64,000 nt of DNA from Stegostoma tigrinum (Eukaryota): positions 23,317,410 through 23,381,409 of the forward strand of contig NC_081366.1 of the NCBI RefSeq assembly GCF_030684315.1. The letters run 5' to 3'. The position numbers and the translations under genes are program-made. Below are positions 1,122 through 60,738 of the stretch, piece by piece. The notes under the pieces are model-generated. The model saw only the letters and a list, made by a program, of their open reading frames with translations, searched no databases and was not told where the DNA came from. Every line of letters starts with the position of its first letter. The first letter of the stretch is position 1.

Positions 1122-1579
1122 GGATTCACCGTCCCCCCCCCTCTACAAGGCCGATGCTAACCAGACCAGCTCTTCCCCCCCACCCACTGCATCCCAAAAC
1201 CAGTCCAACCTGTCTCTGCCTCCCTAACCGGTTCTTCCTCTCACCCATCCCTTCCTCCCACCCCAAGCCGCACCCCCAGCTACCTACTAACCTCATCCCA
1301 CCTCCTTGACCTGTCGGTCTTCCCTGGACTGACCTATCCCCTCCTACCTCCCCACCTACACTCTCTCCACCTATCTTCTTTACTCTCCATCTTCGGTCCG
1401 CCTCCCCCTCTCTCCCTATTTATTCCAGTTCCCTCCCCCCATCCCCCTCTCTGATGAAGGGTCTCGGCCCGAAACGTCAGCTTTTGTGCTCCTGAGATGC
1501 TGCTTGGCCTGCTGTGTTCATCCAGCCTCACATTTTATTATCTTGGAATCTCCAGCATCTGCAGTTCCCATTATCTCCG
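1122..1579 (+). mobile_element. Penelope-like element 3' fragment (family A) with hammerhead motif
   Basis: Near-identical to 60355-60738 and 48510-48867; flanked by atgctaaag at 1113-1121 and 1580-1588. Confidence 0.85.
1451..1478 (+). ncRNA. Minimal type I hammerhead ribozyme motif
   Basis: CTGATGA-A-GGG(tctcgg)CCC-GAAAC-GTC: intact core with palindromic ACGT stem III. Confidence 0.75.
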
Positions 1580-1589
1580 ATGCTAAAGA

Positions 1590-2060
1590 TTTGCAGGTTT
1601 CCCTTCCCAGGCGCTCCAAACCAACCCGCTGAGAAATCTAATCAGCGTCTCAGACTGAACTATCCACTCTGTGCCTTTCCCACTCCGGATGCACGTGTTA
1701 CGACAAGCTTGAGATAGATTCGTGCTTGCGTGTTTTTTTTAATCCAAGCCCCCATGAAGAAAAAGTTCCTGCCTCATTAGTAAAGCCAAAAGTGAGAAAA
1801 TCACGATGCGGGCAGTTCAGTCCCCTATCTGTGCCTTAACCTTCTTTGCATGCCTGTCAGACTCTCAGCAGCAGCACCAACAGTCCACACTCAGCGTCTT
1901 TTTCTTTTCTCTCTCCCGGTACTTATTTTCCAGAGGGTCGACAGAATTGCAGCGGCAGGAAACGGCAAGGAGGAGGATTGAAAGAAATAGCTTCTGCCTT
2001 GAGGGACGGGAAATATTGTGCGCCATCACCCTATGTCGCTGGGCTGGGATATATGTCTGT
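1590..2060. promoter_or_regulatory. Second CpG-enriched unique patch, possible enhancer or alternative promoter
   Basis: Multiple CpGs, E-box CACGTG at 1692-1697, pyrimidine tract ending ttttccag at 1933. Confidence 0.3.
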
Positions 2061-3732
2061 CAACCTGTGCATTTTACAAAATGGAGCTAGGCTTGATAGC
2101 CCAAGGCAGGACATGGTACTGTTGAATGGGATGAAATGACAGACCTGTCAACGTACAGAGACAAACACTGAAACAAGTCTTTTTTAAACATGAAAGACTC
2201 GTGTTGTTTGGTAGGAAAAATATCCCTTGAACAAAAAAAGGCAAGCTGTGGTTCCATCTATCTGGTTTCACATGCTGGGTGATGTTACAAACTTTGGTTT
2301 CATTGGCCTTGGTGATATCAAGAAAATATATCTTTTTAAGTTGTATCTAGTTTTGAGCTTTAGGTGTTTAGGCCTTTGATTCTGGGTAGAGTTTCCCATC
2401 ATTCACAAAGATCTAATATAAATTTTCCCTGATCCAAAGCAAGTTTCCTTACAAAAACAACTATTATTCTTTCTCCTTTCAGAATGTTTATGTAAATATG
2501 TTTATAAATTCTTCAGTGACCTTAAATTTCCAGAAATTTCTATCTTTACTAGTTGTAGTGTTAGATGTCAGTGTTAGAGGCGCTTCTTTTCATAAAGAAA
2601 AACTGCTTCTACAGAAGGATTTTCTATTTTAAATTTTAATTAAAGTTCTTCCTTTGGGCACAAAGAAGTAGAAACAGTATTTACTGGATCATTTCATGAC
2701 TTAATCAGATCATGGATGATACTTCATCTCAATTCCAGTCTCCTGCCTGGTTCCCATGTCCCTTGATTGTTTTAGAGTACAAATTCCTTCTCTTCAATGT
2801 ATTTTATGACTGAACATTCATAGGTCTCTGGGGTAGAGAAAACCAAAGATTCACAGCCCTAAGTGAAAAGATTTCTGATCCATTCCCAAATGACTGTCTT
2901 GAAAACCCAAGGGAAAATCTTTCGCCTGTCTCAATGATGATTTCCTGATCTGAGCCATGCAAACGTAGAATACTGATTACTCTACAAATGCATATATCAC
3001 ATATATAGGATAAAACAAGGAACTGTGAATCCTGGACATCTGCAACAAACAAATATGGGGATTGCTGGAGAAACTCAGAAGGTCCGGCAGCATCTGTGAA
3101 AGAAAGTTAATGTCTCTAATCAGGTGAACCTTCTTCACAAGACTTAACTCTGTCTTCTCTTTGGTTTTGATTGTGAATAATGAATGTTCACATTTTGGTC
3201 TTGTGAATTGGAGATTTGAGCACAATCCAGGCCGACACACTATTATATTACTGTTTTGTTGGAGGCAAGGTCTTTTAGATGAGATGTTAGGAGGCTGGGT
3301 TTATGTAGATGTGAAAGATCCCAAGTCATTATTTGAAGAAATGCAGCTGACTTGCCTTGGTGTTCTGACTAATTGTTAGCCCTTAACCAGCATCACTAAT
3401 CTAGATTACCTGGGCATAACACTTTAAAACCTTGCTTTGTGGGAGAATGGTGTGTGCCAGTTCAACCTGCTGCATTCTTTCCATTACATGTTTACAGATG
3501 TCTTGAGGTTATGAAAAATGTTGGTAATTCAAAGCCCTCCTTCTTTAAAGTAACCACCATTAAAAAGTAACACTCAAAAAACGAAATGACTAGGACTTAT
3601 GATTTCTGAATAAGGGGTGAGTCATTTAGGCCTCAGTTGAGAAGCAGATGGCTGAAGATACTCATTGAAAACAGAGACCAGCAAGTTTTTAACAGAGAAG
3701 GCGATAGCCTATCAATCCAGAGATGCTGCCAC

Positions 3733-13007: not shown

Positions 13008-13105
13008 TTTCTGAAGAAGGGTCTAGGCCCGAAACATCAGCTTTCCTGCTCCTCTGATGCTGCCTGGCCTACTGTGTTCATCCAGCTCTACACCTTGTTA
13101 TCTCC
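13008..13105 (+). mobile_element. Penelope family A terminal fragment with CTGAAGA..GAAACATC hammerhead variant
   Basis: ctgaagaagggtctaggcccgaaacatcagc at 13011-13041 followed by the family tail. Confidence 0.75.
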
Positions 13106-15821: not shown

Positions 15822-15930
15822 GCTGGAGAATCTGAGACGACAAGGTGTAGAGCTGGATGAACACAGCAGGCCAAGCAGCATCAGAGGAGCAGGAAAGCTG
15901 ACGTTTCGGGTCTAAACCCTTCATCAGAAG
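15822..15930 (-). mobile_element. Penelope family A terminal fragment with intact hammerhead core
   Basis: Reverse complement reads cttCTGATGAagggtttagacccGAAACGTCagc (15897-15930). Confidence 0.8.
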
Positions 15931-18770: not shown

Positions 18771-19074
18771 TCCTGTTATGACTTTGTCAGGTTTGATAAT
18801 TGCCCTCCAACAACCACAGAATTTTCCTTTGTGGCCAATATGACTCAGTTTTCCACTAGTTCCTACTGATTTCAGTTTTACTGGAGATCTTTGATAGCAC
18901 AGTTTTTCAAATACTACTTTGTCACTGAGCTCTTCAAGTACTCAGTTGATGCTTGGTACTAGACTGTTCTGGTGGTAAGCTGGTAGATAGGATTTGTTCT
19001 CCTTTTTATGGGGAGGATGTACCTGGGACTTCATTAAATTTGTTGGGTTAAAAACCAGTCTTGTACCCGTATTG

Positions 19075-19297
19075 ATGTAGAGCTGGATGAACACAGCAGG
19101 CCAAGCAGCATCAGAGGAGCAGGAAGGCTGATGTTTCGGGCCTAGACCCTTCTTCAGAAATGGAGGCCCTTCTGAAGAAGGGTCTAGGCCGAAAATGTCA
19201 GCCTTCCTGATCCTCTGATGTTGCTTGGCCTGCTGTGTTCATCCAGCTCTAAATCTTAAAATCCCAGATTCTCCAGCATCTGCAGTTCCTACTATCT
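19075..19297. mobile_element. Fold-back (inverted) pair of Penelope family A termini
   Basis: Arms about 19075-19159 and 19170-19254 are reverse complements; diverged flanking duplication ttgtacccgtattg / ttgtagctgtattg. Confidence 0.8.
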
Positions 19298-21169: not shown

Positions 21170-22400
21170 CAAATGTCCAAAGGGGATGTTGAATCAAGAA
21201 TGGCTAATGAAAGAACTTAAAGGTTGCATTAAATAATAGGATGTTGCTTATAAGGATGCCAGAATAGAAGTGTTAAGCTTGAGGACTGACATCAATTCAG
21301 AGCCTAGTAAAAGAGGATCAAGAAAACCATAAGAAGTAAAACCAATATAAATGCAAGCTAGTGAGAAACAAAGAGGCAGACAGTACAAGCTTCTTTCGAT
21401 GCATGAAAAGAAAAAGATCAGCTAGAACAAAACTAGGTCCATTACAGGCAAAGAAGAAAATTTATACTGGAGAACAGGGAAATTGTGAGGAAATTAAATA
21501 ATTACTTGTTTGTATTAATAAAAAAGATGAAAAAGCTCCCAGAAATACTTGGCAAACACGGGATTTGTGGAAGTGAAATAAATTAGTATTAATAAAGTGG
21601 TAGTTCTAAAAAGGTTAGCTGGATTGATGGTGAATAAATCCACTGGACCAGGGATGCATTAGTAGTAATCTTTCAAAATCATTTAGATTCTGGTGAGATT
21701 TCTGAAAACTGAAAAGTAGTAACTGTACTGCTACAATTCAAGAATGGAGAACTACAAATCTGTAAGCTTGATGTCAATAGTAGGGAAAATGTTTGAACCT
21801 GTAATAAAGGATATAATAAATGGACACAGAAAAGAATGGTAAACACATTCAGACTCAACATAGATTTATGAAAGGAAAATCCAGTTTGTCAAACGTGTTT
21901 GTGTTTTTTTGAAGATGTTACTTATATCATAGATAAAAGAGAACCAGTGATTGCAGTGTAATTTGGATTCACAGTAGGTTATTGATAAGGCCAACAAAAG
22001 AGGTTAATAAACCACAAGAGGCTTGTGGGATTGGGGTAATATACAAGTGTGAGTTAAGAATTGATTAACAAACAGAAAACGAACAGTAGGAGTTGGATCT
22101 AGGCCCGAAACATCAGCTTTTGTGCTCCTGAGATGCTGCTTGGCCTGCTGTGCTCATCCAGCTTCACACTTTATTATCTTAGTAGGAGTTAATCGATCAT
22201 TCTCGGGACTGCAAATAGTTGGAATGATCATTGCCAGGTTCATAGATGTTCAAAACCTTTGAAAAGATTTAGATTAAGGACCAATTATAATATTTTCAAA
22301 TTTTTTGATGATGTCAAATTGAGTGGCTAGATATGTTGTGAGGAGCATGCAAGGAGGCTTCAAGAGGACTTGGACAACAAATGGCTAAAACATAGCTAAT
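21170..22400 (+). mobile_element. Highly decayed CR1 RT region
   Basis: Remnants such as NKSTGP, HRFMKGKSSLSN..FFEDVT, VYLD and KFFDDVKL across frames. Confidence 0.65.
22095..22180 (+). mobile_element. Truncated Penelope family A terminus inserted in a CR1 relic
   Basis: Starts within hammerhead stem II; duplication agtaggagtt at 22085-22094 and 22181-22190. Confidence 0.8.
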
Positions 22401-41936: not shown

Positions 41937-43250
41937 GTATGTACATTAGCTAGTAGCTGAGTCATTCTCACTTGATTTGTCCCCCTGGCACCGCCTGAGC
42001 TGAGATGCTCTGGCTTTGATTCCCACTTCCGGGCTGATATCTTATTCACTTCAGGAAAGCCAGCATGTATCAATGCTGAACCACAGCTCAAATAAATGGA
42101 GAAAGTTAATGGCAGGAAAGGTACCAAATGCATCTGCTAGGGACAGAAAGCAGTGACAGGTAAGAAGGATGAGCAACTAGCCATGTAGAAAAAGCTATAT
42201 AAAGAAAAGTGAACTAGCCCCATGAATGCCAGATCCAAACCAAATGTTTTCCAAGTAGTTTCTGGTTCTTTATCATGTGGCTAGGGATAAGGGTCGGAAG
42301 AGGATAGGAATTCTGAAAACATTGAAGAGAATTTTGCAGCAATGGCTGGGTACTGTAAACTCATTGGATTATAGGTTTTAAGATTTTGAAATGGCCTGTA
42401 GCTAAATGATATTGATTTTTTTGTGCTAAAACTCTGTTACCATATTAACCTCAAGAGAAATTAAGGAAAATGCTGCTCCTCTTGCAAAATAAGCTTTTCA
42501 TTTTCATTTTTTAACCACAATGAAATCAGAATTTGTAAATAATTAGAGCACACATGTTGGTTGCATGATTAATTACGAATTAGCAGTGTTGTTACAATCC
42601 TTTTACATATAAACATGCTGACACTTTTACAATGGCAACAGCATCACTTAGAATTACATAGATTTGCAGCACCAAAACAGTTCAACCAATCAATGCAGGG
42701 TTCAGTGTTTTCGTATATTCCCTTTTCTGTCACATATTCATCTAACTTCCTTTTCAAAGTATCTGAGCTACTTGCGTTTACCATTGTCTGTGCTAGCAAG
42801 TTCCACATTCAAACCACTCCCCAAATAAGGAAACTTGTCCTTATTTCTGTATTGCAATTATTATTAAGTTGTACTGAAAGTCTAAGTTTAGGGTCTTTCC
42901 ACAAGCGGAAATGTCCTCTCTGCACCTACCCTGTTCCATCCATTCAGAATTGGAAAGACCTCAATCAAGTCAACTCTAAGTTTTCTCATTTTAAAGGACA
43001 AAATAAAACCTGTTCAATTCTCTTCTTCAGTGCAATCGCTCAGGTCTGGTAACATCCTAGTAAATCTTTTATCCCAGTAAATATTTTATAGTACAGGGAA
43101 CTAGAAATGTGCACTGAATTGCTATTGCCTTGTTTCCTGATTAGTTTTTTGGAAGTTTAAAGTATAAATTTAAAACACATTGAAATTAAATCAAACAAAC
43201 TGAAGAGAATAACCATGTTTTGATAAAGTTATTTTTTTTCCCTGTTGCAG

Positions 43251-43318
43251 AAGGATTTAGCTCCTGCTGTAAGCTCAGAACCAATGAAACAAATGTGTAA
43301 CAGCAGAAACACTTCCAG
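43251..43318 (+). CDS. shroom1: shroom1-like coding exon 2 (68 nt; KDLAPAVSSEPMKQMCNSRNTS), absent from the ORF track
   Basis: Acceptor ttttttttccctgttgcag, donor AG|GTGAGT, no stops. It converts phase 0 to phase 2, which is exactly what is needed to join exon 1 to the 45006 exon. Confidence 0.82.
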
Positions 43319-45005
43319 GTGAGTGACAAAATTGTCTTTGCAAAGACTATGTACTGAACTTGAAGCTTCAATATTTAAGAAGCAGAACTGAAGTGGAGGG
43401 ATACTTCTGCCTATTCTGAAGATGTTGGCCTGCCCTTGTTTCCTAGCCTGAGGATCATTTCCCTGAAAAACAAGTCTGCAACTTCCAGATTTGTGTTCAT
43501 TTTGGGACAGAACCATGTTCGGGTATGTCCCTTGCCCACATACCTTGCCGTAGAATCAGCATGGACGAGTTGGGCAAAAGGGCCTATTTACGTGCTGTAT
43601 GACTCTAAGAGAAGACAGCTAATGGATTGCTTATGCAAAAAGTGATAACCTTTTAAATTGAAAATGTTCTTCATGGTAATATAACAACACTCTGAAAGTC
43701 CTTATATTAACCCCTCTTTCAGTCATATTCTCTGGTGAATTCTAAGACTGGAGAAGTGATTCCAGTACCCACTGTTGCAATGCAAGTAACAGGAACTATC
43801 ACAGAGGCCTTTTTCTCATCTCATGGTTGGCTGTGATTTCTTCTGCTGGAACAAATCTGGAGAAAGCACTGAGCAGCCAGTCACACAGTGATGATCATCC
43901 CCAAATTGTTTGCCACCTCTGCCCGTTCAAGATCCACCAAGTGTTGTTGCAGAGAACCAGGAATTGAAGCACCAATTCAAAGCTAGGTCAGCGCTGTGGT
44001 TAGTATGGCAGGGGGGTGGGAACCTGAGCTGTATACCTGAGCTTAAGGCAATGATTGTAGGCACAGACCATAGAAATCATAGCTGTGTGAATGAGCAGTT
44101 ATTCTATGTAGGGATATTGTCCCCAAATAATCTCAGATGATTCAATAGTCTTCCTCCTCTGCAGTAATGGAACACAAGGTAAAACATTGTACAGCTGTGG
44201 GGGAAATGTGGAAGAGTGAGAATGACAGAGTAGGCCACTTGGCCATGATAAACTGTATAGTCGACTTCTCTGTTGTGACCATTTCTGAATTCTGTGGTTA
44301 GAATTCGAAAACCCTAGAGAAATTCAGTCATTCACCAGCAGAGGACACCATAAACCCTGTCCTCACACATGAGAAAATTGTATATGATCATTATAATTTG
44401 ATCACCATTATCCATGTATTATTGGATTGGGGTTGCTTATTAAGTTACTGTTGTATAAATAATAATACTTATTTTTATATATCACAAGTCTGGTCTTAGC
44501 CAGCTATTCTTACAGTTCCTTTGGGAAATGTTGAAAGATAAATCATTAATTGCTTTAACTGGAGTTTACGCAACAAAATAGGAGCAGAAGTAGACCCAGT
44601 CAAGCCTGGTCTGCCAGTCATAGCTGATCTGATATGGCCTCAACTTCCTGCATGACCCCCATATCCCTTAATACCCATATCAATCAAAATTTCTGTCCAA
44701 CTCAGCCTTGAATTTTTCAATCATTCATGCTCTACTGCTTCCTTATGGTAACAATGCCAAACACTAATGGTCTCCAAGAGAAGAAAGTACTCCTCATCTT
44801 AAATGGGAGAGGCCCTATTTTGAGACTGTGACCCCAAATTCTAAATTTTTCCCATGGGGGGTATTCCACATATCAACGATGTGAGAGTTAAGGTGAGAAA
44901 AGTATCGAATCTTGGTTTTGCTCAACACTTGTTAATTTTATGACATACGTGCTCCAATTTTTTTTCACAATCTAAATATTTCAAATTTGTAATGCTCCTT
45001 CTCAG

Positions 45006-45749
45006 GTCTGTTTCTGGCAAAATCAATCCTGTAACTGATCGGATTTCTTATTCAAATTGTCATGAAAATAAGCGTAAAAACATGGCCCCTAGCAAAAACA
45101 TCCTTGCCAGACAAAGAGGAAAGTCATTGGATGAAATTCAGACGCCAAGAGTCAGAAGTTCCGCAGTACTGAGCAGAAGTTCTGACCAGCTCCACCACTC
45201 TGCCATTGATAGTGAAGTAGATTCCCAAACTGGAAATATGGTGCCTCAAGAAAAGCCCAGTGGATCTCCAACTAAATGGATTAAAGTGGCGCTGGCATTG
45301 AAAAAAGAACGTCCACCACTATCAAGATTGCCTTCTCCCAAACAAGAGGGGATTAAATTGAAGCAGGAAGGCATTATGTTAGGAACTAACAAGATTTCAG
45401 CTCTCACTACATTTGAGACAAATTCTAAAGTAATCAAGGCTCATAGGGGTTCTTCTGCAGAATCCCCAACTTCTACATCCCCATCTCCACGTTCCAGGCT
45501 GCAATCTCCACTGTGGAATTCAAGAGACCGGGCGCATTCCCTTTCCTCCCTGTCTTCCTGGAGAGATGATGTGTTTGTTGAGGATTCTTCCAACATATCT
45601 AAAAACAGTACGACAGATCCTTGTTCAGCAGCTGAAAACTTTTCTGTTCAATTCAACATCTCACAACAGCATCATTCAAAAAGTTTTGAATCTTCACCCA
45701 CGGAAATAACAATGAATAAAGAAACCAAATCAGCTACACAATCAACCAG
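45006..45749 (+). CDS. shroom1: shroom1-like coding exon 3 (Ser/Pro-rich linker, RQRGKSLDEI motif)
   Basis: Within ORF 44992-45753; acceptor ctccttctcag, donor AG|GTAAGG; phase 2 to phase 2. Confidence 0.87.
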
Positions 45750-45884
45750 GTAAGGCAGCAAAATCTGTTCATTATTCAAAGCAAATCCTTGCTCTTCTTT
45801 ATCTAGATTTCTGTAGAGTATTGCAGTTTTGTTTGAAGCAATTTAACAATTACCTTACAATTACCTTAATAGTTGTTAAAAAGT

Positions 45885-46050
45885 TGCAAAAACAGAAATC
45901 GCTAGAGAAACTCAGCAGGTCTAGCTGCATCTATGGAGATAATGTAGACGTAACGTTTTGAGTCAAGTGGCCCTTCTTCACTGGACACTCCAGTTTCTCC
46001 AGCGATTTCTGTTTTTGTTTCATATTTCCCGCATCCACAGTTCTTGGTTT
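45885..46050. repeat. Family C fold-back repeat
   Basis: aaaaacagaaatcgctagagaaact mirrored by agtttctccagcgatttctgttttt; decayed hammerhead on the minus strand at about 45951-45984. Confidence 0.6.
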
Positions 46051-46939
46051 AATTTTAGATGTAAAAATTTAAGCGTCTCAATTCAATTTGGCTACAGACA
46101 TAGCACAGTTTCAGTTGCAACTACAAAACGTAGTATTAGGGACAATGTGGCCATATTGAACAGTTCCAGTGTTTCCTTTACAGCTTGTATTTCACCTGTG
46201 AGAATGTCTGTTAATAAAGACAGCATATGGCTAAGCTTGGCATCAGAATTGCAACTCCTCAAAGTGCCAGTTTGCAGCAGTGAATATTGATGCTGCTCAA
46301 AAGATTAATTAGTTTTGGAGGTGGGGAGTAGTATGGTGCTGTTCTGTGAGGACAGAACCCTGATTGTTCGTTCATGGGGCCTCAAGAATTCTTAATTTAG
46401 CAATGCCAGTGAGTGAACCAGTATCATCCTTTATATGGCGAGGGATCAATTTCAGCCCTAATGATAGTGAAAGCTACTTCTCAATTGGAAGTACAGTTTA
46501 TGAGGAAAGTCAGTTTTATTTCAGCTGTCTTGAGAAACTAATTTTAAAACAATATCGGCTTTCGCACAAGCCCAAAAATATATTAAAAGTTCAAATAATA
46601 CTTTTTAAAAAAAATGTTTTATGAACCAATCCAGCTTGGTAGAATTCTGATGGCTCAGGGTTCTGTCAACAGTCCTCACCAACATCTTTCCTTTAAGGCT
46701 CACCAGGAGAAATCTAATGGCATTATTGGAGAATACCTTTCCCTTTGCTTTTTTTTTCCCCTGGCAGAAGCCTAATTGTAGCTGAGGGCCTAAAATGCAA
46801 AGCAGATACTTGTGATGGGTGTGTGGTAGATGGATAGAGGAGAGTTGCTAATGCCTCTATTATAAACCTGAGATGCTTTTCAAAAAGCATTTTAATTGTA
46901 GCCGTTAGGCATGATTCCAGCTTTTTTTTTCCTTTCTAG

Positions 46940-47446
46940 AGGAAAGAATTCACTGTCAACGAAGGAATCTCTTCACCTAGATCTTGGAGAAAATGGTGAG
47001 GAAAATCACAACAGGTCAATGTCAACAGTGTTGGGATCCTCATCAAACAGTTCAGACGTCGCTATTGAAAGACCTGTGCCAATCTTGATGGCACAAGTTG
47101 CAAAGTCTGCTGAGGACAAAAGTGAGACCAGCCAGCCTTTTCCAGTAAAGGACCATCAAGACAATGGGGAAGAGCCATTTCAGCAGCTTTCAAAAGACCC
47201 AGGATCCACATCTGTCCATGTAAGGGTGAAGACAAAGACTCCTGAAGACCTCAGAATTGAGGAGCTTATTAAGGAAATTATTAATGAGGATCATTCACTA
47301 GCAGATGTCCTTGATCCCAGCCCTACACGGAAAACTATAATGGATCTTGTGACAGAGTTGTTTCAAAAGGATACTTCAGTGCTTGAGGCTTGTCAGAGGA
47401 GAAAGCAAATGGACAGTCAGGCAATGATGAAGGAAACCAAGAATAA
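46940..47446 (+). CDS. shroom1: shroom1-like coding exon 4 (start of ASD2: KTPEDLRIEELIKEII..DHSLADVLDP..RKTIMDLV)
   Basis: Within ORF 46911-47450; acceptor tttttcctttctag, donor AA|GTAAGT; matches the Shroom EELAREIV..DKSLADILDP..KTTMDLM motif; phase 2 to 2. Confidence 0.9.
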
Positions 47447-48420
47447 GTAAGTAAATTAATTACAACTTGCTACATGTAACCTGCAAATACATAAAACTAG
47501 TACTGAAAAGTTATGTTTGCTCAGTGAGGCCTAAGTGAGTGCTGAAAGATATATTTGGAACACAATCTGTCATGCTTTATGCTGTAATGAAGTGATTTTA
47601 GTTATTATTTTCTACTTTTTGCTTCCGACAGTATCGCACTGAACTGTCCAAGGTTGAAGCAGAGTTGTTCTCCTTCCAATTTTCCAATTTCGTTACATAG
47701 GAACATGGAATATTAAAGCGGGTGTAGCCCCTTGAGCTTTTTCCACCATTTTTTCTAATTATAGCTGTTCATCCAACTCAATACACCATTCCTGCTTTCT
47801 CCACAAACCCTTTGATCCCTTTTTTTTGAGAAATATATCTACATATTTTTTGAAAGATTTCAGTGTTTCTCCAGTATAATGTTCAGATATCACCAATATG
47901 TCCTTATGTAGGCAAGAAGAACATGGAAGAAGGGTTGGATAGTGTTTAGCAGCGTGATGGCGTATGAACTTAGGCATTAAAAATGGTTTCAGACCAAGAA
48001 TGGCTGTGCAATGCTACTTGCAATGTCCACTAATATCCAGTAACAACAGTTTAGTTATTTATATGATATGGAAATGGAAAGACTGTGCAGAAGTCTATAT
48101 TTTTAAATAATTTTGATACAGACCATATGGTTTAGGGACAGCAGGAGGGCCACTCAGCCCCTCAAGTCTGCCTCATGAATAAGAATGTGACTGATCTGAT
48201 TACTGCATATTCCCATATACCCCCACTTGCATTTTATCCACTTACTTATCGAGAATCAATGTATCAAAAATATTCAAAGGCTCTGCTGTCATCACCTTTT
48301 GAGGAAGAGTGATTCAAAGTCTTATGACTCTCTGAGAGAGAAAAAAAAATCCGCATTGCTGTTTTAGCTGGGTGACTGCTGTTTTAAGCAGTGGTTCCTA
48401 AACAGTGGTGGAAATGGTCT

Positions 48421-48867
48421 AATGGTATTGTCCACTTGGGAACCCTGCAGCCCAATGGTTTCAATGTGGATTTCACAAGCTTCAAAATCTCCCTTCCCCG
48501 CACTGCATTCCAAAACCAGCCCAGCTCGTCCCAGCCTCCCTAACCTGTTCTTCCTCTCACCTGTCCCCTCCTCCCACCTCAAGCCGCACCTCCATTTCCT
48601 ACCTACTAACCTCATCCCGCCCCTTTGACCTGTCCGTCCTCCCTGGACTGACCTATCCCCTCCCTAACTCCCCACCCATACTCTTCTCTCCACCTATCTT
48701 CTCCTCTATCCATCTTCGGTCCGCCTCCCCCTCTCTCCCTATTTATTGCAGTTCCCTCCCCCCATCCCCCTCTCTGATGAAGGGTTTAGGCCCGAAACGT
48801 CAGCTTTTGTGCTCCTGAGATGCTGCTTGGCCTGCTGTGTTCATCCAGCTCCACACTTTGTTATCTC
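48421..48867 (+). mobile_element. Penelope family A 3' fragment (end of GIY-YIG ORF, C-rich UTR, hammerhead at 48774-48801)
   Basis: Similar to 60225-60738; CTGATGAagggtttaggcccGAAACGTC. Confidence 0.85.
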
Positions 48868-48869
48868 AA

Positions 48870-49990
48870 CTTCTGAGATGTTCCTTGTATGGTTTATAAT
48901 GAAGACCAAAGCAAAATACCTTTTCAGGTTTTTTTTCACCATTTCCTTATTTTCTATTATTAATTTTCCCATACCTATTTCTATAGGACAGATGCTCACT
49001 ATTCATTTTTCATTTTTCACTATCAATAGAAACGCTCACTGTTTGTTATTATATTGCCAACTCACTTTCTCTCATACTCTTTTTTTTCTCCTTATTATTC
49101 TTTTAGTCATTCTTTGCTGTTTTATATATTTGAAACTTTTGATTGCCAGCCATCTTTGCACTACTATGGGTGCTTTTTCATTAATTTTGATACTATATAC
49201 AACATTTCTGGTCAGTACAGATAGTGAGCCCTATCTTTGGATTTTTGTTTCCCTTCCTCATTGTATTTATTCAGAAATATCCCCTTAAATATCAGTCACT
49301 GCATTTCTATTCACCCATTCCTTTATCTAATTTATTAATTCACTTTTGTTACTACTTTTATGCCTTTATAATTGCCCTTTCTTTAAATTTTAAGTACTAA
49401 TCTTGGATCCAATCATCTCTCTCTCTCTCTCTCTAATTGAAGTAAAAATCAGTTAGAAGGATTACTGCTACCTTCTGGTGCTTTCCCTGTGAGATCATTA
49501 TTTATCCTATCTTGTTACGCAGTAACAGTACTAGTACAGGCTGTGCTTGGCTCCAATACATGCTGTTCTAAGAAACTATCCTGAAACCAATTTAATAACT
49601 TCTCTCCCAGGCTACCTTTGCCCATCTGACTTTTCCAGATGAAAATCCCCCATGGTTATCTTCTCACCTTTCTGACAAGCACCTATTATTCTGTGGTTAC
49701 TGATAGGGGACCTATGCACCACTTCTATAAGTAACTTCTTGCCTTTAACATTTCTCAACTTAACTTGAACCATTTTTACACCCTGCTTCCTTGTCATCCC
49801 TGTCTATTGCACTAAAAGCATTAATAATTAACAAAGCTACTGCTCCACTTTTTCCTGCTTTCTGTGTTTCCTAAATTTTGATTTTTAGGCCCAAATTTAT
49901 TTCAACATAAGTCTTAGTGACCTTGACATCATCCTTATTTCTCTTTGCACTATCAATTCATCTGTTTTATTTTGAATGCTGGGTGCTTTC
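48870..49990 (-). mobile_element. Decayed CR1 LINE (endonuclease/linker region)
   Basis: ORF 49612-49797: VKLRNVKGKKLLIEVVHRSP..ITMGDF. Confidence 0.55.
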
Positions 49991-50179
49991 AGATATACAG
50001 CCTTTAGTTATATACTTTTACTATTCTTAAAACTTTTAGCCTTACCTGTTGATTTATTTTTAGAGTTAAAATATATCCCTTCCTGTTAGGGTGGTTCCTC
50101 ATTTCCCATATTAATATCTGACTGCCTTGCTTTGTCTCTACTATTTGATTTACCACATGGTCTCAAAATTGAGTGCAGT

Positions 50180-51090
50180 GAGACATAGAAAATAGATACA
50201 GGGCTCGGTCATTTTGACCTTCAAGCTTGCACTACCATTCAGTATTCCCTTCCTGTTTTCTCTCTGTACTCCTTGATCCTTTCGGCTGCAAGGGCCACAT
50301 CCAGCCCCCTCTTGAACATTTCTAATGAAATGGCCCCAGCAGTTTCCTGTGGGAGAGAATTACCACAGGTTCATGAGTCTCTGAGTGAAGAAGTTATTCC
50401 TCACCTCAGCCCTGAGTGGCTTACCCCTTATTCTTAGACTGTGACTCCGAGTTATGGACTTCCCCATCATTGGGAACATTCTTCCTGAATCTAGCCTGTC
50501 CAGTCCCATTAGGATTTTATATGTTTCTGTGACAACTACCCACCACCCCCCACCATCCTTCAAAATTCCAGTGAGCACAGGTCTATTCGATCCAGTCTTT
50601 CCTCATATGTAAGCCCTGCCAACCCGGGTATCAGTCTGGTGAACCTTCACAGGCCACCCTCAATAGCAAGAATGTCTTTCCTCAGACTAGGACTCTAAAA
50701 CCACACAAAATACTCAAGGTATGGCTTCACCAATTCCCTGTATAACTGCAGCAATACATCCTTACTCTGATTCTCAAATTCTCTCGTTACGAAGGAGAGC
50801 GCAAGCCATTAGCTTTCCTCACTGCCTGCTGCACCTGCATGACATCCTTCAGCAACAGTTCCACCATGACACCCAGGTCTTGTTGTACCTCACCTTTTCC
50901 TAAAATGCAATCATTCAGATAATATTCCTGTTTCTGCCACCAAAGACAATAACCTCAAACTTGTCCACATTATGTTGCATTTGCCAAGTATTTGTCCACT
51001 CAGCCAGTCTATCCAAGTCATTTAGTGTCATCTGCAAATTTGGAAATATGGCATTCAATGCCTTTGCCCAAATCATTAATGTGTATTGTG
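50180..51090 (-). mobile_element. CR1 LINE 3' fragment
   Basis: ORF 50360-50578: ETYKILMGLDRLDSGRMFP..TRSHSLRI..NFFTQR. Confidence 0.8.
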
Positions 51091-53337
51091 AACATATCCC
51101 ACAATTTAATTTAAAATCCTTTCTACTCCCCTTGTTAGACAGCTCACTAGAACACTGGTGCCAGCAAGTTTAAGCTACTTTCCTTCTTTAACTAATTTCT
51201 CCCCAGTACAGAACTTGTTCATCTCTGCTTAGTTCTTAACTTAAGCAAGCAGCACTATGCTTCTTCACTGTTAAACATGCTATCAAAAATATTCCAATAC
51301 AAAGAGATCATTGATTAGTCCCATGGGTCATTCACAACCCAGGTCATACAGAAAAACCCAATCACTGTCACTTTTGACGTGATAGTGACAATGAAATATA
51401 TATTCTGACGCAGGGAACAACTGAAAAAGATGGTACCTTTGTGTCCCAACCGCTCTAAAAACCAGTTGATGGTCTAGACAAACCGGACGTGAGGGTAAAT
51501 GAAGGCAGAAGCAAAGCGAAATGCTACTCATCACACGGCATCATACACATTTAAGGATAGATGTAGCAAAACCCACCCTCACAATTGCACACAGCAAAAA
51601 GTAATAATTGATGTTCCAGCAACTTATTTAGTATCAATAATTTATTAAAACTGCCAGATATCATTGATTTTGGGATCCATCAACAATTTCCCTGTATTCC
51701 TTTAATTTGTTGCATGATGAATGAATAGACAGATGTGACATTGATATGGTTATCTGTATCATTTAGTATCTTATGTGCGGTTAAGGAAATGGATTGCGGA
51801 AAATATAACTACACTCTGCTGAACAACTTTGGCTTGAAAATTAACCTTAGGTATATGATCTTTGATGTTATTTTTGTAATACCCTTAGGATGAATATCAA
51901 AGTGAGAATGGCCATTTGACCCATCTAACCTCATCCATCCCCAGAAAGCATAGTTACTCTCATTGCAACATCTGTTTGTTAAATCATTCCAAGATTATTG
52001 TCTCTATTGCCTGATACAGAGGTGCATTGATCAATCATTTTGGGAATGAGTGTTTCCTGATATTCAACTTAATATGGCCTTTTACTAGATAGTTCTTGGG
52101 CTTGTAGTTCTATTATTGGGTTCAGTTTGAAGTGTAGGGATCATGGATGTATAAATCCTGCTAATATTGGTACTGGAGAGCAAGGGGAAATCTGGAAAAC
52201 AAATGAGTTAACAAGATGGGCCCCGAGCACTTAACTGTGGCAGGCAAGGCCAGGTGACCTCTTGATAATTCTAATGTAAGGAACATGGAGCTCAGAGTGA
52301 TTTGGCAATGGCAGGCCTGCTTATCCAATCTTTGTCTGTTAAACGGCCATAAGACACAATCCTAGGTGGAATTACGGAGAGGAATCCAACATTTAAGGCT
52401 CTATTATTACTGTCTCTGCCTGGCATAAACCAGACATGGACCCAGTTAAAGTAAGTTGAGAAAATCGATCACTCCTTTCCAAACCCAAACTGCTATTTGA
52501 AAATACAGGCAGCAGGGCCACTTAGTGCTAATCAGATAGCATCATCTTGACTTCTCTTGCCATTTTTTCTGGCATGACAGTGGAAGAGATATTGCACTAG
52601 TCCCAAGTTCCCTGATCTGTGTTAACAGAATAACTTTTAATGGTAGTTTACTCTACAGAGTGTTACATAGTTTGTACAACATGTCCACCCTTGTGTTTGT
52701 GTTCCATTTTACTTTAGCAAAACCCATCAACATATCCTTCTCTTCCTTTCTCTCTCATGTACTTAAGGATATCAAAATGCTAGATTACCTATGACCCAGG
52801 AAAACCAGTCAAAGTACAATGGAATGAACATATCTCCTGCCTCTATTCTGTCTCTAAATGATTGGACTCTTGGGGGAAGATCAGCCATGATACTTTGAAT
52901 AATGAAATAGTAGTGAGACAGCCCAATAGCCTACTCTTGCTTCTGTTCCTCATGTTAAAAGAAATCCTCACCTGATCTATAGCTATTGTGTGCTCAAGAA
53001 AGTTTGAGAATTTATCATGACTCACCAACAGCTTTATGATGTAGCTTGTAACTATTGAACACTCCCTCAAATTTATTTAACTCACAAATCTCCTGCTCTT
53101 TAATACAGGATGAATAGTCTCAGTAGTTTGAGAAAGATTTGAACCCACATCAGAGATTTGAAACAATATTAGTTCACAAGCAGTCTCTTCCTTTCCAAAT
53201 AATATACATTAAAATGACAGAACTACAGTAAGATTAACTGGATAGTTCTGGTCTTACTTAATGCCAGGCATTTGGCAGTGTTAAGACAGTCCTTTGGAAA
53301 TGTCATCCGTGCTTTGTGTTCCTATTTTTTTGATTAG

Positions 53338-53470
53338 AAACAAGCAAGATAATCAACTCTCATTTTCAATAAAAACAAATCTCCAATCTGAAATATCAAT
53401 GAAAATCAATCAAAAACAAGAAAGCACCAAGAGTGAAATGGAGTGTGAAAGTGATGTGACAGAGAAGAAG
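53338..53470 (+). CDS. shroom1: shroom1-like coding exon 5 (133 nt)
   Basis: Within ORF 53294-53539; acceptor ttttttgattag, donor AAG|GTGAGT; phase 2 to 0; ends ..ESDVTEKK, directly before the ASD2 core as in other Shrooms. Confidence 0.85.
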
Positions 53471-55498
53471 GTGAGTGATGCTTATGCAATCCCAGTACAA
53501 CGCCGTTCTTATGAAGCCAAGAGGGGAGCTATCAGCTGACACTGAGCATTTTATATGCAGCAGCTTACCCATTTCTACATAGTATTCTGGTAATTTACAC
53601 ACTAATACCATCTCCAGTACAGCATACTAATCTTGTATTAACCAGGTCTGTTCTTAAGGAAAATTTTCACAATGTCCTAATGCCATTTCAGTAGGTATCA
53701 TATGTAGATGAGTAATTCTGACTTGGAGATACCCTATGACATTCAAATGCATATAATACTATGTTACTGCTTCTTCCAACAAAACAATATAAACAATGAG
53801 AGATGATTTGTTCTGCATAGCTGTAACATAAATGTGAAGATCAGTTAGCAAAATTGGCTGGGAGGATGGCTTGTAATGCACAATGACACCAACAGCATGG
53901 GCTCAATTCCCATTCTGCTTGATGTTACCATGAAGGTCCCACCTTCTCAGCCTCACCCATTATACCATCAGGTTCAGCTCATGACCAGTTGCCTCTCTCT
54001 CTCTAGTCGATGAACAGTCCTCTGGGACTATAGTGACTGAATCTTTTCCTATCATAAGTACATTCTTTATAAGTTAGTTTTTAATTTTGTTGCACACAGA
54101 GAACATCTTCACATTGCTAATGGGCTGAGGATTTCAAATATTTCATACTATAATAATTGAACAGACTTTGTCTACTCTTCAAAAGCATTAAAGCTTTCTC
54201 CATGAATTCATGACTGCATATTACAGGTTAAAGCCCTTGAAAAAACAGAAGTGAAACCTATTTTGAACTAAGTAGTAATTTCAAAATGGCCCTACTGAAT
54301 TCGAGCTTTCTACATGTGTGATTTCTACCCCATCCTCTTCTCTCATCACCAAACCTGAGATCTGCTGGAAATGGATATCCAAATCTAAGAAAACCGTACT
54401 ATTTTTGCCAGTCTTCAGAGGTAGCCTGACTCTGCAATTCCTCAGACATTAATATACTTCTGTTGACTGGTCAATTCTTAATTCCTGAATTTTCAAAGTT
54501 TAACTCTTGAAGGGTACCCCTTCAACAAATTACAGAACACCAAGCTCACTGCTTCCCTGCAGTTTTTTTTAACCACAAGAAGCAAGTAGAAATTTTCAAA
54601 CAATGAGTTAAGCAATAAACTGCAATTTTGGGCAGTATACATTAGAAAATGCTCCAAAAAGCTCTTGCACATTGATGAACATTGCCGCATTTAGTGATGC
54701 TTTTTCTTATAAAAGAATAGTGCACCTACTCACTATATAAACAAAATACTCTCAGTTCCAGTTTGGACAGTTTCTGTCAGTTACTCATTGTAGACAGGTT
54801 ACACAGAGATTTGTTTCTCCATTGCTTTCTGATTGTATCATGTGGCTGGCAGGCCAGCAAAAAACAAACTAAATAGACCCTTTTCTTTCGGTTTAGCATT
54901 TTGTATGTTCCCATTCATTTGTAAACAAGTAGGGACAGGCAATACATGCTGGACAGCTAGCGATACTATGAGTGAACATAAAAAGTAAATACTTGGACAT
55001 TCAGCAGAATGGGTGCACTCCTAAAAATGTGCTGGAAACTTCAAGAGAAGATACCCCTTCAACAAAATTATAAATTTCAAACCTATTAAATAGATTCATG
55101 TCTATGTTGCCCATACGCACAGAGCTCTTCACCCAACATTGTTGCCTCTTCCTGAGATGTGTACTAAAACAGCATAACAAGAACACATTCCAGTCCTGCC
55201 TACCTACCTGACAGTGTAGAAGACACTGGCAATATATTTGTGGCTGAGTTCTTGCTATGTTTCTAATGCATTCCCGTCCACTGCTGCTTCAACTGCTGGG
55301 TCAGACAGACGCGATGGTTAAAATTTTCCAGACCTCAAGTCACAGGAACCAGACAGTCTGTCATTTGCCTTAGCCCCCACTTGTGGATCATATTCCCGTA
55401 TTAAAACCAGGCTTGCCAACTCTCAAACAGATAAAAAAAAATGCTAATAGATTTGAAATGAATGTGTGTGTTAAAAGCTGCTTTGCTTTTATTTCCAG

Positions 55499-55771
55499 AA
55501 GGAGTTAATTAACACCATTAAATGTAAACTTCAAAAACTTCAGGAAGCTAAATCTGGTTTAAATGAGGATATCAAAAGAAATAGCACATTAGGTGATGAC
55601 ATCCAGGTCTGGGTGAATGAAGTCTGCACGCCTAATGAAGTCCAGAAATACAAGACCTTCATTGAGGATCTGGACAAGGTGATGAACTTGCTGCTGTGTC
55701 TATCTAGCCGTCTGGTGCGAGTGGAAAGTGCCCTGAGTAAAGTCAATGAGGCCACTGACGTGGAAGAGAAG
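55499..55771 (+). CDS. shroom1: shroom1-like coding exon 6, ASD2 (ROCK-binding) core
   Basis: Reads KELINTIKCKLQKLQEAK...VCTPNEVQKYKTFIEDLDKVMNLLLCLSSRLVRVESAL; acceptor ttttatttccag, donor AAG|GTTTGT; 273 nt, phase 0 to 0. Confidence 0.92.
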
Positions 55772-56532
55772 GTTTGTTACGATTATCAAGTTGTATTCAA
55801 TTTGACATTTAACTTGAGCTACTGCTAAATACCGTGAAACCAAAATATTCTAATTGTTATTACCAGAATATTTAAAATTTCCCAATGATTTAGGCAATTG
55901 ATTCATGTGGATTTCCATGTCCCCTTCTTGTGCTAATTAAAGTATAGTGATCGAGGAAGGCTTAATTAGGACATGAACAAAATACTGTACAAAGATAGGA
56001 AAAACAGCTGGTACATGTTGATAGTGTTAAAATAGTGACAGATACAGCTGAAAAAAACTCGTGTGCTTAGAAAATTCAATACTAAATATATCCCAAGAAT
56101 TTAAAGCAGAAATTAACAAAACAACGTTAACTGTTCAGCTGAATCAGTGGTATACAAGTTAACAGAAGTCATGATTAAACTATGCAGTGCTTCAAATGAA
56201 ATACCATCTTGAATACTGTTACTGAAAAACAAGACAGATAGTCAGGTCCTAGTGGCAGTTCAGAGTTAGGTATGAGACTGGTCCTTATTTTCAAACATTT
56301 GAACTATTTGAAAAGATTGGGGCACTTCAGGTTTTTAATCTAGAAACCACGCATTTGTCATATGCTGTTGTAGATATATACATAAATTGGGAAAGAGAGT
56401 AGGAACAAGCTGAAATACACCCCATGCATTGGGATGCCAATACCAGGACCAAAGAGAATTCTTGAGCATGCACTTGCCAGCAGTAAGAGAGAGCTGGTGA
56501 TTTTCAATTTACAACGAGTCAACCGTCCAGTT

Positions 56533-57081
56533 AATAGAACATATAGAACATAGAACATTACAGCGCAGTACAGGCCCTTCGGCACTCGATGTTACGCCAA
56601 CCTGTGATACCAATCTGAAGCCCATCTAACCTACATTATTCCATTATCATCCATTTGTTTATCCAATGACTATTTAAATGCCCTTAAAGTTGGCGAGTCT
56701 ACTACTGCTGCAAGCAGGGCATTCCATGCCCTTACTACTCTCTGAATAATGAACCTACCTCTGACATCTGTCCTATATCTATCACCCCTCAACTTAAAAC
56801 CATGTCCCCTTGTGCTTACCATCACCATCCTAGGAAAAAAGCTCTCACTGTCCACCCTATCTAATCCTCTGATCATGTTATATGTTTCTATTAAGACACC
56901 TCTTAACCTTCTTCTCTCTAATGAAAACAGCCTCAAGTCCCTCAGCCTTTCCTCATAAGACCTTCCCTCCATTCCAGGCAACATCTTGGTAAATCTCCTC
57001 TGCACCCTTTCCAATTCTTCCACATCCTTCCGATAATGCGGTGACCAGAACTGTACGCAATACTCCAAGTGTAGCCGCACC
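56533..57081 (-). mobile_element. Young CR1 LINE 3' fragment
   Basis: Open frame VRLHLEYCVQFWSPHYRKDVEELERVQRRFTKMLPG..RRRLRGVLIETY; (ATAGAAC)n tail at 56533-56556. Confidence 0.9.
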
Positions 57082-57795
57082 GTTAAGGATGATGGACAAG
57101 CCCCTGATGCTGCTCTCCGATTAGACCATTGGTAGCTGTGAAGCTTCAGCAACCCTACCCCAGCAGAGACAGGTTGGAGACAATAAGGACACTTCAAATA
57201 ATACATTTAGGAAGACTGAGGTTAAAAGGCCTTTTCGGGTGGACTCAATGGAGCAGAAGGGAGAGCCTTTCCTGCAGCAGCCCTTCAGAGGATGGAGACT
57301 GTGGCTCCACTAGACCCCACGCTGCTGCAGTGAGGTCACCTCCCTGAAGTTGCCGTCCTTTCCCACAGGGCAGGGTGTTGTCGAAATGTTGCGGACCCAT
57401 TGTAATGGCTCGTAATTAGAGTCTCAACTATAAAAATAGAGTGAGGCCTACAAGCAGCAGACAAATAACCTGCGCCCAGATTCACCACAGGATACATTTA
57501 CCTGTGATGGGAGTTGTCCCAATATGGTTCCACAGAATTTCATTGCTCTCTCACTCTTCTATTCTAACAGCTGGGGCTGGTAAAATTCAGACCAAAAAAT
57601 TGAGAATAATCAGAATAGTATAAGTTCCACACTGAGAACAGTGGTAAGTGTTCAACCTAGTAATATATCAGTTTAGGATTAATATCAGGACTTTCTTCAT
57701 GAAGAATTGTTAATATATGGAATAGACATCCAGATAGATGAGTGGAAACAAAAATCTTAGATATGTTAAAGAAGCAATTGGAAGCTACAATGGGA

Positions 57796-57954
57796 GAGAG
57801 AGAGAGAGATAATGGGAACTGCAGATGCTGGAGAATCCAAGATAATAAAATGTGAGGCTGGATGGACACAGCAGGCCAAGCAGCATCTCAGGAGCACAAA
57901 AGCTGACGTTTCGGGCCTAGACCCTTCATCTGATGAAGGGTCTAGGCCCGAAAC
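57796..57954 (-). mobile_element. Penelope family A terminus ending in a perfect hairpin, with (AG)n tail
   Basis: Duplication ggaagctacaatggga at 57780-57795 and 57955-57970; 24-bp inverted arms 57907-57930 / 57932-57955. Confidence 0.85.
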
Positions 57955-58281
57955 GGAAGCTACAATGGGATGGCTTTGCAACTGTCTGGATGGGTGAATT
58001 AATATGGTCTAAAAAGCTTTCCTCATCTATAATTATCTTGTGTTTTTGTGAGTAGTGGTGAATAGATATTGCAGGAAAAGATGGGTTTCACAGGTGATTG
58101 ATTACCTGTGTAGTCCATTGCTTTGCCTTAACTGCAAAATTTGAGGAAGGTGTAGATTCAGAGGTTTTACAAGAATCTGCATTTATCATGGCTAAAATCT
58201 TTAATCTTAATTTGGTCTCTACTGAACTGAGTTTGACAAATCATTTACAACAAGAGCTACTTTCACACTGAGTTTTATAAC

Positions 58282-58645
58282 TGCATAGTGGCTCAGTGGT
58301 TAGCATTGCTGCCTCACAGTGCCAGGGATCTGGGTTCATTTCCACACTTGGGTGCCTGTCTGTGTGGAGTTTGCACATTCTTTCGGTTTCCTTTGAGTGC
58401 TCCGGTTTTCTCCCACAATCAATGTACAGGACAGGTGGATTTGACATGCCAAATAGTATTAATATAAATAGTATTTACCCATAGTATCCAGGAGTGTGCA
58501 GACTAGGTGGATTAGGCATGGGAAAAAGTAGGGCTACAGGGATAGGGTAGGAGGAAATGGGTCTGGGTGGGATATTTTTCAGAGAGTCAGTGTGAACCCC
58601 AAAGTACCAAATGGCCTGCTTCAACACTATGAGGATTCCATGATT
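58282..58645 (+). mobile_element. tRNA-derived V-SINE (HE1-like)
   Basis: A box tggctcagtgg, B-box-like gggttcatttcc, V domain tgtgtggagtttgcacattct..tgctccggttttctcccaca, CR1-like tail. Confidence 0.8.
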
Positions 58646-59621
58646 TTATAAATCTGTTGTGCAGACATTTATACATTTTCAATTATTTGAAGAACAAAAA
58701 AGAATAATCCTTTGGTAGTAGACCATTTGAGATTGACTGAAAAATATCACAGATTATTGCAGCTTTTTGCAGGTCAATTTGCAAGAAATACTAAAACTAA
58801 AGGGAAAACAATATTTTCACTTCATAGGAGAAAAATGCTGATCGCATCTCAGAGGAATCACATTTAATGTTGGACAATCTTTTGCAAGATGTGCAAGTGC
58901 ATGCTGGTTGACTCTGCCATAACATTTATCTATATCATTTTTCTAAGTTATTTGGAGTGTGCAATAATTACATTGTTGACTAATTTAGGGCTATTGTCCA
59001 GGTTCGCAGTGTGGTGTACTTGTGTATAATGGAGGATATTTATATTTTTTCTATAATTTTTCATGGGATGGGGATATGGTTCAATGTCAGTATGCTACCA
59101 TCTCTCCCATCAATACGTAGAGTCCTATCTTTCCAAATGGAAAGAACAAGTACACACCCTGTATATATTTCAGCTCTAGAAAATAGGTGGTAGACATCAT
59201 CTGGCTCATTTCTCATGGTAATCTGTTAGCCAATCAGAATCAAGCTGTATCATTTATAATTTAAACAAATTCTGTCTGTTAACTGGTCCATTTTCAGTGA
59301 CAAAAGCTTTAGCAATCAGAGTCCACTTGACAACCAATCAGAACTCTCCTTGCAAACACCATCAATGCTGTTTACCTTTACTTTGGTAATTAATGTGAAT
59401 TGTCCTGTTGAGTGTGAGATAAAAAGTTGAGACCAAATATGCCTTTTTTCAGCAATAAACAAAGGAAAATCAGAAGGAAGAACTTTACTTAATTTTTCAA
59501 GATTACTATTGTTGATATACTGTTACTCTGTTGCTGCACATACCTAAATTAGGAATGGTGTAAGGTTAAATATTTTGGTGTCCCAAATAATACAAGTGTG
59601 CAGCAGATTGGTAGAACCTAT

Positions 59622-60738
59622 GATAATGGGAACTGCAGATGCTGGAGAATCCAAGATAACGAAATGTGAGGCTGGACGAACACAGCAGGCCCAGTAGCAT
59701 CTCAGGAGCACAAAAGCTGACGTTTCGGGCCTAGACCCTTCATCAGAGAGGGGGATAGGGTGAGGGTTCTGGAATAAATGGAGGGGGGGGCGGACCGAAG
59801 ATGGAGAGAAAAGAAGATAGGTGGAGAGGAGAGTATAGGTGGGGAGGTGGGGAGGGGATAGGTCAGTCCAGGGAAGATGGACAGGTCAAGGAGGTGGGAT
59901 GAGGTTAGTAGGTAGGAGATGGAGGTGCGGCTTGGGGTGGGAGGAAGGGATGGGTGGGAGGAAGAACAGGTTAGGGAGGCAGAGACAGGTTGCACTGGTT
60001 TTGGGATGCAGTGGGTGGAGGAGAAGAGCTGGGCTGGTTGTGTGGTGCAGTGAGGCTTGGGGACGCTTTGCAGAACACCTCCGCTCAGTTCGCAATAAAC
60101 AACTGCACCTCCCAGCCACAAACCATTTCCACTCCCCCTCCCATCTCTAGATGACATGTCCATCATGGGCCTCCTGCAGTGCCACAATGATGCCACCCGA
60201 AGGTTGCAGGAACAGCAACTCATATTCCGCTTGGGAACCCTGCAGCCCAATGGTATCAATGTGGACTTCACCAGCTTCAAAATCTCCCCTTCCCCCACCG
60301 CATCCCAAAACCAGCCCAGTTCGTCCCCTCCCCCCACTGCACCACACAACCAGCCCAGCTCTTCTCTCCCACCCACTGCATCCCAAAACCAGTCCAACCT
60401 GTCTCTGCCTCCATAACCTGTTCTTCCTCTCACCCATCCCTTCCTCCCACTCTAAGCCGCACCTCCATCTCCCACCTACTAACCTCATCCCACCTCCTTG
60501 ACCTGTCCGTCTTCCCTGGACTGACCTATCCCCTCCCCACCTCCCCACCTATACTCTCCTCTCCACCTATCTTCTTTTCTTTCCATCTTCGGTCCACCTC
60601 CCCCTCTCTCCCTATTTATTCCAGAACCCTCACCCCATCCCCCTCTCTGATGAAGGGTCTAGGCCCGAAACGTCAGCTTTTGTGCTCCTGAGATGCTGCT
60701 GGGCCTGCTGTGTTGGTCCAGCCTCACATTTCGTTATC
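59622..60738. mobile_element. Penelope family A insertion with long inverted arms and GIY-YIG endonuclease C-terminal remnant
   Basis: About 59660-60050 is the reverse complement of about 60335-60738. The centre encodes RFAEHLRSVRNK..NHFHSPSH / MSIMGLLQCHNDATRRLQEQQLIFRLGTLQPNGIN. Hammerheads at 59719-59746 (-) and 60647-60674 (+). Duplication ttggtagaacctat at 59608-59621 and 60739-60752. Confidence 0.88.

Follow-up and report, generated by a model that had tools for sequence, protein, structure and literature searches.

This study focused on hammerhead-like motifs dispersed over a 64,000-nucleotide (nt) stretch of the zebra shark genome (Stegostoma tigrinum, contig NC_081366.1, positions 23,317,410 to 23,381,409; the whole stretch is called the window). 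The motifs very probably belong to a family of shark Penelope-like elements (PLEs) that carries minimal hammerhead ribozymes (min-HHRs) in its terminal repeat, and whose copies in the window are broken insertions and likely inert. By every sequence feature tested, the motifs are minimal hammerhead sequences, with a borderline helix I. Elements of this kind were already described in 2014 (PMC4209133), and the association of hammerheads with PLEs is general and expected. No published shark example of PLE min-HHRs was found in the literature on sharks and elasmobranchs. The 56 motifs printed in the supplement of PMC4209133 include none from a cartilaginous fish, and sharks, Callorhinchus and Leucoraja go unmentioned in the two supplement files searched, file 1 lying outside that search. 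For the catalogue, the value is that a carpet-shark family is added to those known to have PLE minimal hammerheads.

Hammerhead motifs and the element that carries them

A descriptor built after the published min-HHR consensus (the core, an optional extra base, a helix II that opens with G-C and has 3 bp or more, GAAA, a paired 15.2-16.2 without a loop, and NUH) gave five matches in the window and no further ones, and none in 200 dinucleotide shuffles. These are the five intact cores listed in a preliminary description of the same DNA, and the letters, read directly from the sequence, match exactly (Table 1). BLAST of the 1159-1577 copy against the window recovered 12 family segments overlapping the motif, of which 5 were complete and 7 broken. 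The CUGANGA core, one unpaired base and a helix II opening with G10.1-C11.1 are present in 5/12 segments, and all five complete cores carry GAAA, the loop-less palindromic 15.2-16.2 pair and the NUH site (GAAACGTC), in keeping with the earlier description of stem III as an ACGT palindrome lacking loop III. The GGG/CCC pairing reported for stem II was also recovered, as part of a 4-bp helix (GGG/CCC extended by a U.G or U-A pair) closed by a loop of 4 nt, where the preliminary description had 3 bp and 6 nt. In 5/5 complete cores helix I has 2 bp (U-A, C-G), as had been estimated. The motifs share with the min-HHRs of metazoan PLEs (PMC4209133) the CUGANGA core, the extra base before helix II, G10.1-C11.1, GAAA, the loop-less C-G palindrome, the GUC site and the location in a PLE repeat, and likewise occur mainly as single dispersed copies, some of them on opposite strands about 100-700 bp apart. 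A covariance or descriptor search had been suggested as a check; the consensus descriptor found the five cores, while an Rfam scan of the window returned no hammerhead family at E<=1. Two matches to Rfam microRNA models were rejected, being below threshold and sited on head-to-head inverted repeats.

Damage in the seven broken segments consists of CpG changes in helix III, loss of the first part of the core, or a fold-back joint. The four variants listed earlier all exist, and none is intact: helix III reads ACAT in those at 13011(+) and 19157(-); the one at 19172(+) is short of one C in helix II and reads ATGT in helix III; and that at 57930(+) ends after GAAAC(G), its minus-strand partner lacking U4 at the fold-back joint. 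The earlier list had overlooked the 5'-truncated copies at 22095 and 25089, as well as, at 12812-12841(-), a decayed motif belonging to a second family. The latter is a hammerhead-like motif in a second, unrelated repeat, with CUGAUGA, an extra U, a decayed 6-bp helix II, GAAACGUC and a 3-bp helix I, and it lies head to head with the 13010 copy at a distance of about 170 bp.

The carrier is best seen at 60061-60741, where the motif follows the endonuclease end of an open reading frame (ORF) and its 3' untranslated region (UTR), placing it in the terminal repeat of a PLE. A 49-aa piece of the endonuclease remnant (60144-60290) is 96% identical to proteins P0001 of Rhincodon typus and P0003 of Stegostoma tigrinum; P0001 gave a GIY-YIG match above the cut-off and an RVT_1 match below it. 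Longer homologs of the remnant number 95, most of them near 900 aa and carrying reverse transcriptase (RT) and related domains. In P0003 a single frame continues from RT and endonuclease across the same 3' UTR and enters the motif, and 102/121 residues of the read-through stretch are identical to the window frame, which ties the motif to an RT and endonuclease ORF in a second genome. The single ORF with RT plus a C-terminal GIY-YIG domain was thus seen via relatives, the window carrying the endonuclease end alone. Pfam found 0 families on the two endonuclease pieces of the window, which are too short, and the endonuclease identity was for this reason drawn from homologs. The identity of the remnant to RT and GIY-YIG proteins, together with the terminal-repeat location, upholds the earlier view that the motifs are carried by a PLE.

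A CX4CxxC linker lies between RT and endonuclease in P0001 and in 6/6 full-length homologs among the matches listed, while P0003 has lost its final Cys; a wider count of 77/78 is unspecific, the pattern also fitting the endonuclease's own Cys motif. A linker of the form CX2-5CxxC marks the Neptune and Nematis clades (10.1101/2021.04.23.441226). Downstream of the motif, a frame that begins with the ATG at 1497 stays open across the whole tail, and this ATG may mark the true start of the ORF; no PLE protein starting like this frame was present among the fetched proteins that were compared. A further ATG lies within the hammerhead core and opens a 13-codon frame at 1454-1495. About 20 bases upstream of the core, at 1410-1430 and the matching place of the other three, a pyrimidine tract followed by CAG, a potential 3' splice site, is found in 4/4 long copies. 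Introns can occur in PLE repeats; among the contig joint rows listed, none supported a 3' splice site at this position.

Table 1. Hammerhead cores, element copies and coding features in the window
Feature	Position	Strand	Details
Complete min-HHR core	1451..1478	+	helices II and I of 4 and 2 bp; cut predicted after 1478
Complete min-HHR core	15900..15927	-	helix II closed by U-A; within 15802-15928 copy
Complete min-HHR core	48774..48801	+	sense strand of Shroom intron
Complete min-HHR core	59719..59746	-	inverted arm of largest insertion
Complete min-HHR core	60647..60674	+	direct arm of largest insertion
PLE ORF C-terminal remnant (GIY-YIG endonuclease end)	60061..60416	+	frameshift near 60144; stop at 60416
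5'-truncated PLE copy	1161..1577	+	3' UTR, hammerhead, downstream part, 34-bp tail (1544-1577); 10-bp target-site duplication
Short copy, second subfamily	13010..13104	+	starts at motif head; helix III ACAT; no tail; no duplication found
Short copy with tail, 127 bp	15802-15928	-	carries complete core
Head-to-head short-copy pair	19074..19297	19158 minus, 19167 plus	mutations in both cores; duplication of 14 bp, 2 mismatches
Short copy	22095..22180	+	truncated inside motif (no CUGAUGA); no tail; 10-bp duplication
Short copy with tail	25089..25208	+	truncated inside motif; 12-bp duplication
Copy opening with scrap of endonuclease end	~48427-48867	+	complete core; Shroom intron
Fold-back insertion	57806..57955	.	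128-bp minus copy and 26-bp inverted motif copy joined at motif head; (GA)n at tail end; 16-bp duplication
Largest insertion, inverted arm	59622-60065	-	with tail; whole unit 59622-60741 bounded by 14-bp duplication
Largest insertion, direct arm	ends near 60741	+	no tail
Shroom-family coding exons	39339..63127	+	ASD1 in 39339-41960; ASD2 pieces 46902-47450, 55475-55828, 62795-63127

Folding, template state and capacity for cleavage

In computed folds a 6-bp helix forms between the core and its own downstream half, giving a closed hairpin of -11.4 kcal/mol, and a dimeric hammerhead reaches only -4.5 kcal/mol versus -22.0 for two monomer hairpins, the full duplex being at -37.2. Across five copies, each folded at three window sizes, the pairing probability of helix I was at most 0.0015, that of helix II ranged from 0 to 1.0 depending on context, and no longer helix I in an alternative register appeared. 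The min-HHRs studied in PMC4209133 did not cleave as monomers and cleaved little as dimers, dimer cleavage has been reported for PLE hammerheads with a short stem III (Lunse et al., as cited in PMC6765202), and the hammerhead of PAc, a Poseidon PLE of Anolis carolinensis, cut solely in the presence of the element's protein (PMC11167929). Given the computed folding and this published record of poor monomer or protein-dependent cleavage, solitary genomic copies would be unlikely to cut, the active fold being strongly disfavored in the calculations.

The 5' ends of the copies bear on the state of the template. Four of the 12 window segments are long, six start no more than 5 bases from the motif head and two start 8-9 bases in; 0/12 start at the cut site. 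A similar distribution was seen in the contigs of organism F, the runs of which contain 0.82-0.83 of the query words: the largest class of 5' loose ends listed lies before 1450 (820 and 594 contigs), and the contigs concerned bear long sequences that are mutually unlike. As the short copies have their starts at the motif head rather than the cut site, it is simplest to suppose that uncut RNA served as the template in most cases, and an uncut template is also the main one for PAc in vitro (PMC11167929). The cDNA may stop at the motif head because the RNA has a 5' end at that point, or because synthesis terminates or folds back beyond the hairpin.

The family is very abundant, with 118,377 and 104,135 contigs matched in two runs. 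Inserted copies show no selection on the core, and the motif decays like the surrounding DNA, since CpG decay is equal inside and outside the core: in organism F, four core CpG positions, including that of the invariant G12, were changed in 10.0-14.2% of depth, and four CpG positions of the 3' UTR in 7.9-16.7%. Among the four long window copies, 2/28 motif columns vary versus 59/339 others (p=0.20). Excess conservation of the core, put forward previously as a check on activity, was accordingly not found among inserted copies, and between organisms it amounts to a borderline trend, the majority letter of organisms F and A differing at 0/28 motif versus 18/170 other positions in the rows listed (one-sided p=0.056). 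The blocks 1496-1526 and 1549-1577 are likewise without majority-letter differences, and pair-preserving changes between the organisms occur at 1449 (helix I, C-G to U.G) and 1467 (helix II). This pattern fits constraint on the source elements but is no proof of it.

As to age, the two arms of the 59622-60741 insertion differ at 20/414 positions (4.8%) and have private letters in common, while other pairs of long copies differ by 6.3-12.8%. Since the arms share private letters yet differ to this extent, the family, judged by these letters, is not ancient and the window copies are not fresh. To call it recently active, as the preliminary description did, was an overstatement: the four long copies lie 4.8-12.8% apart overall, 7/12 segments are broken, and a frameshift interrupts the only coding remnant of readable length.

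It is possible, although doubtful, that the hammerhead-derived motif no longer cuts, even in the source elements, and that its 30-nt hairpin has been kept as a protein-binding or boundary signal. The closest printed motif, that of a Neptune element of Acropora digitifera (PMC4209133), has the same 4-bp helix II, 4-nt loop and AGC after the cut site, but pairs the same AGC 3' strand in a helix I of 3 bp, and the shark helix (2 bp in 5/5 cores) is weaker than this and than the 4-5 bp typical in that study. A loss of cutting would also suit the closed hairpin into which the core folds, the gathering of 5' ends at the hairpin's 5' foot, and the behavior of PAc, in which hammerhead mutants left insertion unchanged and no RNA ends were seen at the cut site (PMC11167929). 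However, a 2-bp helix I occurs in 6/56 motifs of the 2014 supplement (PMC4209133), although with G-C pairs there, and the shark helix stands at the low end of the printed range; the catalytic letters are the same in both organisms while 18 flanking positions differ, and the changes at 1449 and 1467 preserve the helix I and helix II pairs. The stability of the hairpin, moreover, does not exceed that of shuffles (z=-0.18). A more specific form of the idea, that the hammerhead has ceased to be a ribozyme and now serves as the 5' boundary of the template in a very abundant shark family of Neptune type, is quite speculative. If it were true, the short insertions, which run from the tail to the motif's first base, would record in bulk that PLE reverse transcriptase is primed internally and copies uncut RNA up to a point shortly before the core, and the family would be a natural test of the purpose of the PLE hammerhead.

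For a PLE family with a conditionally active hammerhead and mainly uncut templates, a course of events can be proposed from PMC11167929 and PMC4209133. The protein of a source element would bind the RNA near the junction of repeat and ORF, nick target DNA and begin reverse transcription at either tail end, and short and inverted copies would come from cDNA that halted early or folded back. Cutting by the hammerhead would require a dimer, paired via the ACGU palindrome, and would also require the element's protein for folding, because the competing 6-bp hairpin otherwise traps the core. Uncut RNA would be the likely main template, and after insertion the motif would decay like neighboring DNA.

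Several points weigh against this account. No full-length element is present in the window, and no PLE protein was recovered when the 40-aa frame that follows the motif served as a protein query. Neptune is the likely clade, but the assignment draws on the linker and the likeness of the hammerhead motif rather than on a tree. Of the 12 joint rows listed, 4 extend to 1479, the first base beyond the cut site (at a depth of 36-83 versus millions for the region), and one contig begins at 1479 in each of runs X1 and X2, which are presumed to be RNA, although that label is a guess and the runs contain 0.10-0.11 of the query words. Contigs starting there can be graph branch points and were not counted as evidence; joints and starts at 1479 may be rare cleaved templates or branch points of the assembly. 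Contig depth is not a copy count, nearest-neighbor energies leave out Mg2+ and the tertiary contacts that stabilize hammerheads, and conditional cleavage in source elements is a prediction. The family touches the question of whether PLE hammerheads cut in vivo, which the pile of 5' ends at the motif head, together with the very many copies, could address from genome data alone.

Insertion anatomy and comparison with related elements

Target-site duplications of 10-16 bp were found at 6/9 insertions, and none was found at those of 13010, 15802 and 48427. Three insertions have inverted arms (59622-60741, 19074-19297 and 57806-57955), all of them head-to-head, which is a known form of PLE (PMC3846280). 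The 3' ends fall at two sites 34 bp apart, 6/12 segments reaching the tail end and 4/12 the short end, with 2/12 ending elsewhere; among the rows listed, contigs of organism F have loose ends at 1543 (932 and 702 contigs) and 1577 (583). The short inverted arm at 57930-57955 stops 2-3 bases before the predicted cut site, with the duplication directly after it.

These features recall Penelope of Drosophila virilis and Pen2a of Adineta vaga (PMC2377424, PMC3846280, 10.1101/2021.04.23.441226), which also show 5' truncation, an inverted 5'-truncated copy, head-to-head palindromic joints and an optional tail of 30-40 bp, this being 34 bp in Penelope (PMC2377424) as in the shark family. Target-site duplications are another shared feature, of 8-10 bp in those elements and 10-16 bp in the shark family. 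The shark window differs in being without a full ORF or tandem arrangement, and no intron was seen in its repeat. PAc (PMC11167929) resembles the shark family in placing the hammerhead at the junction of repeat and ORF, in having two 3' ends that define the tail, there traced to two internal priming sites, and in its main template. It belongs, however, to the Penelope/Poseidon clade, whereas the shark family has the CX4CxxC linker of Neptune/Nematis, and cleavage was assayed in PAc and found to be protein-assisted, whereas in the shark family it is a prediction.

The short copies of about 90-130 bp could in principle form a separate, non-autonomous family resembling short interspersed elements (SINEs), transcribed from the motif head and mobilized by PLE protein in trans, but this is unlikely. 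All four segments of the second subfamily (13010, 15928, 19158, 19167) start no more than 5 bases from the motif head, the organism-F contigs have a 5' hot spot at 1450 among the rows listed, and isolated motifs are the rule in other genomes (PMC4209133). The short copies of the first subfamily, however, share diagnostic letters with the long, endonuclease-bearing copies, and in organism A the letters of the second subfamily are joined to upstream 3' UTR (loose end at 1447), so that subfamily has a long parent. The same products would result if a full-length RNA were primed internally close to its 5' end (PMC11167929).

Animal non-LTR retrozymes, which have been reported in one chondrichthyan genome (10.64898/2026.07.22.740005), are similarly non-coding, hammerhead-bearing and PLE-derived, but they form tandem repeats with a hammerhead in each unit, whereas the shark copies are dispersed or head-to-head. 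A reading of the motifs as tandem retrozymes was rejected, there being no head-to-tail units among the 12 window segments.

Host genes and other repeats in the window

The copies from 48427 onward sit between coding exons of the Shroom-family gene. That one or more intronic sense-strand copies (48774, 60647) have been co-opted to cut or regulate Shroom pre-mRNA is highly improbable. In its favor, both cores are complete and lie on the transcribed strand between exons, and host gene models can take up parts of the family, as where a tail copy figures as the first exon annotated for NME3 isoforms of the zebra shark. Against it, complete cores in introns are to be expected of so abundant a family (118,377 and 104,135 contigs), the antisense strand has a core that is just as complete (59746), helix I scarcely pairs in its sequence context, and the four long copies show no excess conservation (2/28 versus 59/339). 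In the NME3 (nucleoside diphosphate kinase 3) isoforms concerned, P0155 and P0156, the N-terminal peptide comes from the element's post-hammerhead region and tail, and the annotation uses the PLE copy as an alternative first exon.

The block downstream of the motif recurs in older, decayed repeats at 609-720, 3050-3110, 26591-26841, 27598-27790 and 45887-46051. These repeats include head-to-head pairs at 26.6-26.8 kb and 27.6-27.8 kb, have eroded hammerhead-like heads, and are likely to represent older PLE subfamilies. The 15802-15928 copy is bracketed by a 159-bp inverted repeat of other sequence (15180-15338 and 15945-16102, 89% alike). Decayed RT remnants resembling those of long interspersed elements (LINEs) are present at 9.9-12.4, 18.3-18.9, 33.4-34.0 and 56.7-57.2 kb, as judged from translations and one weak RVT_1 match.

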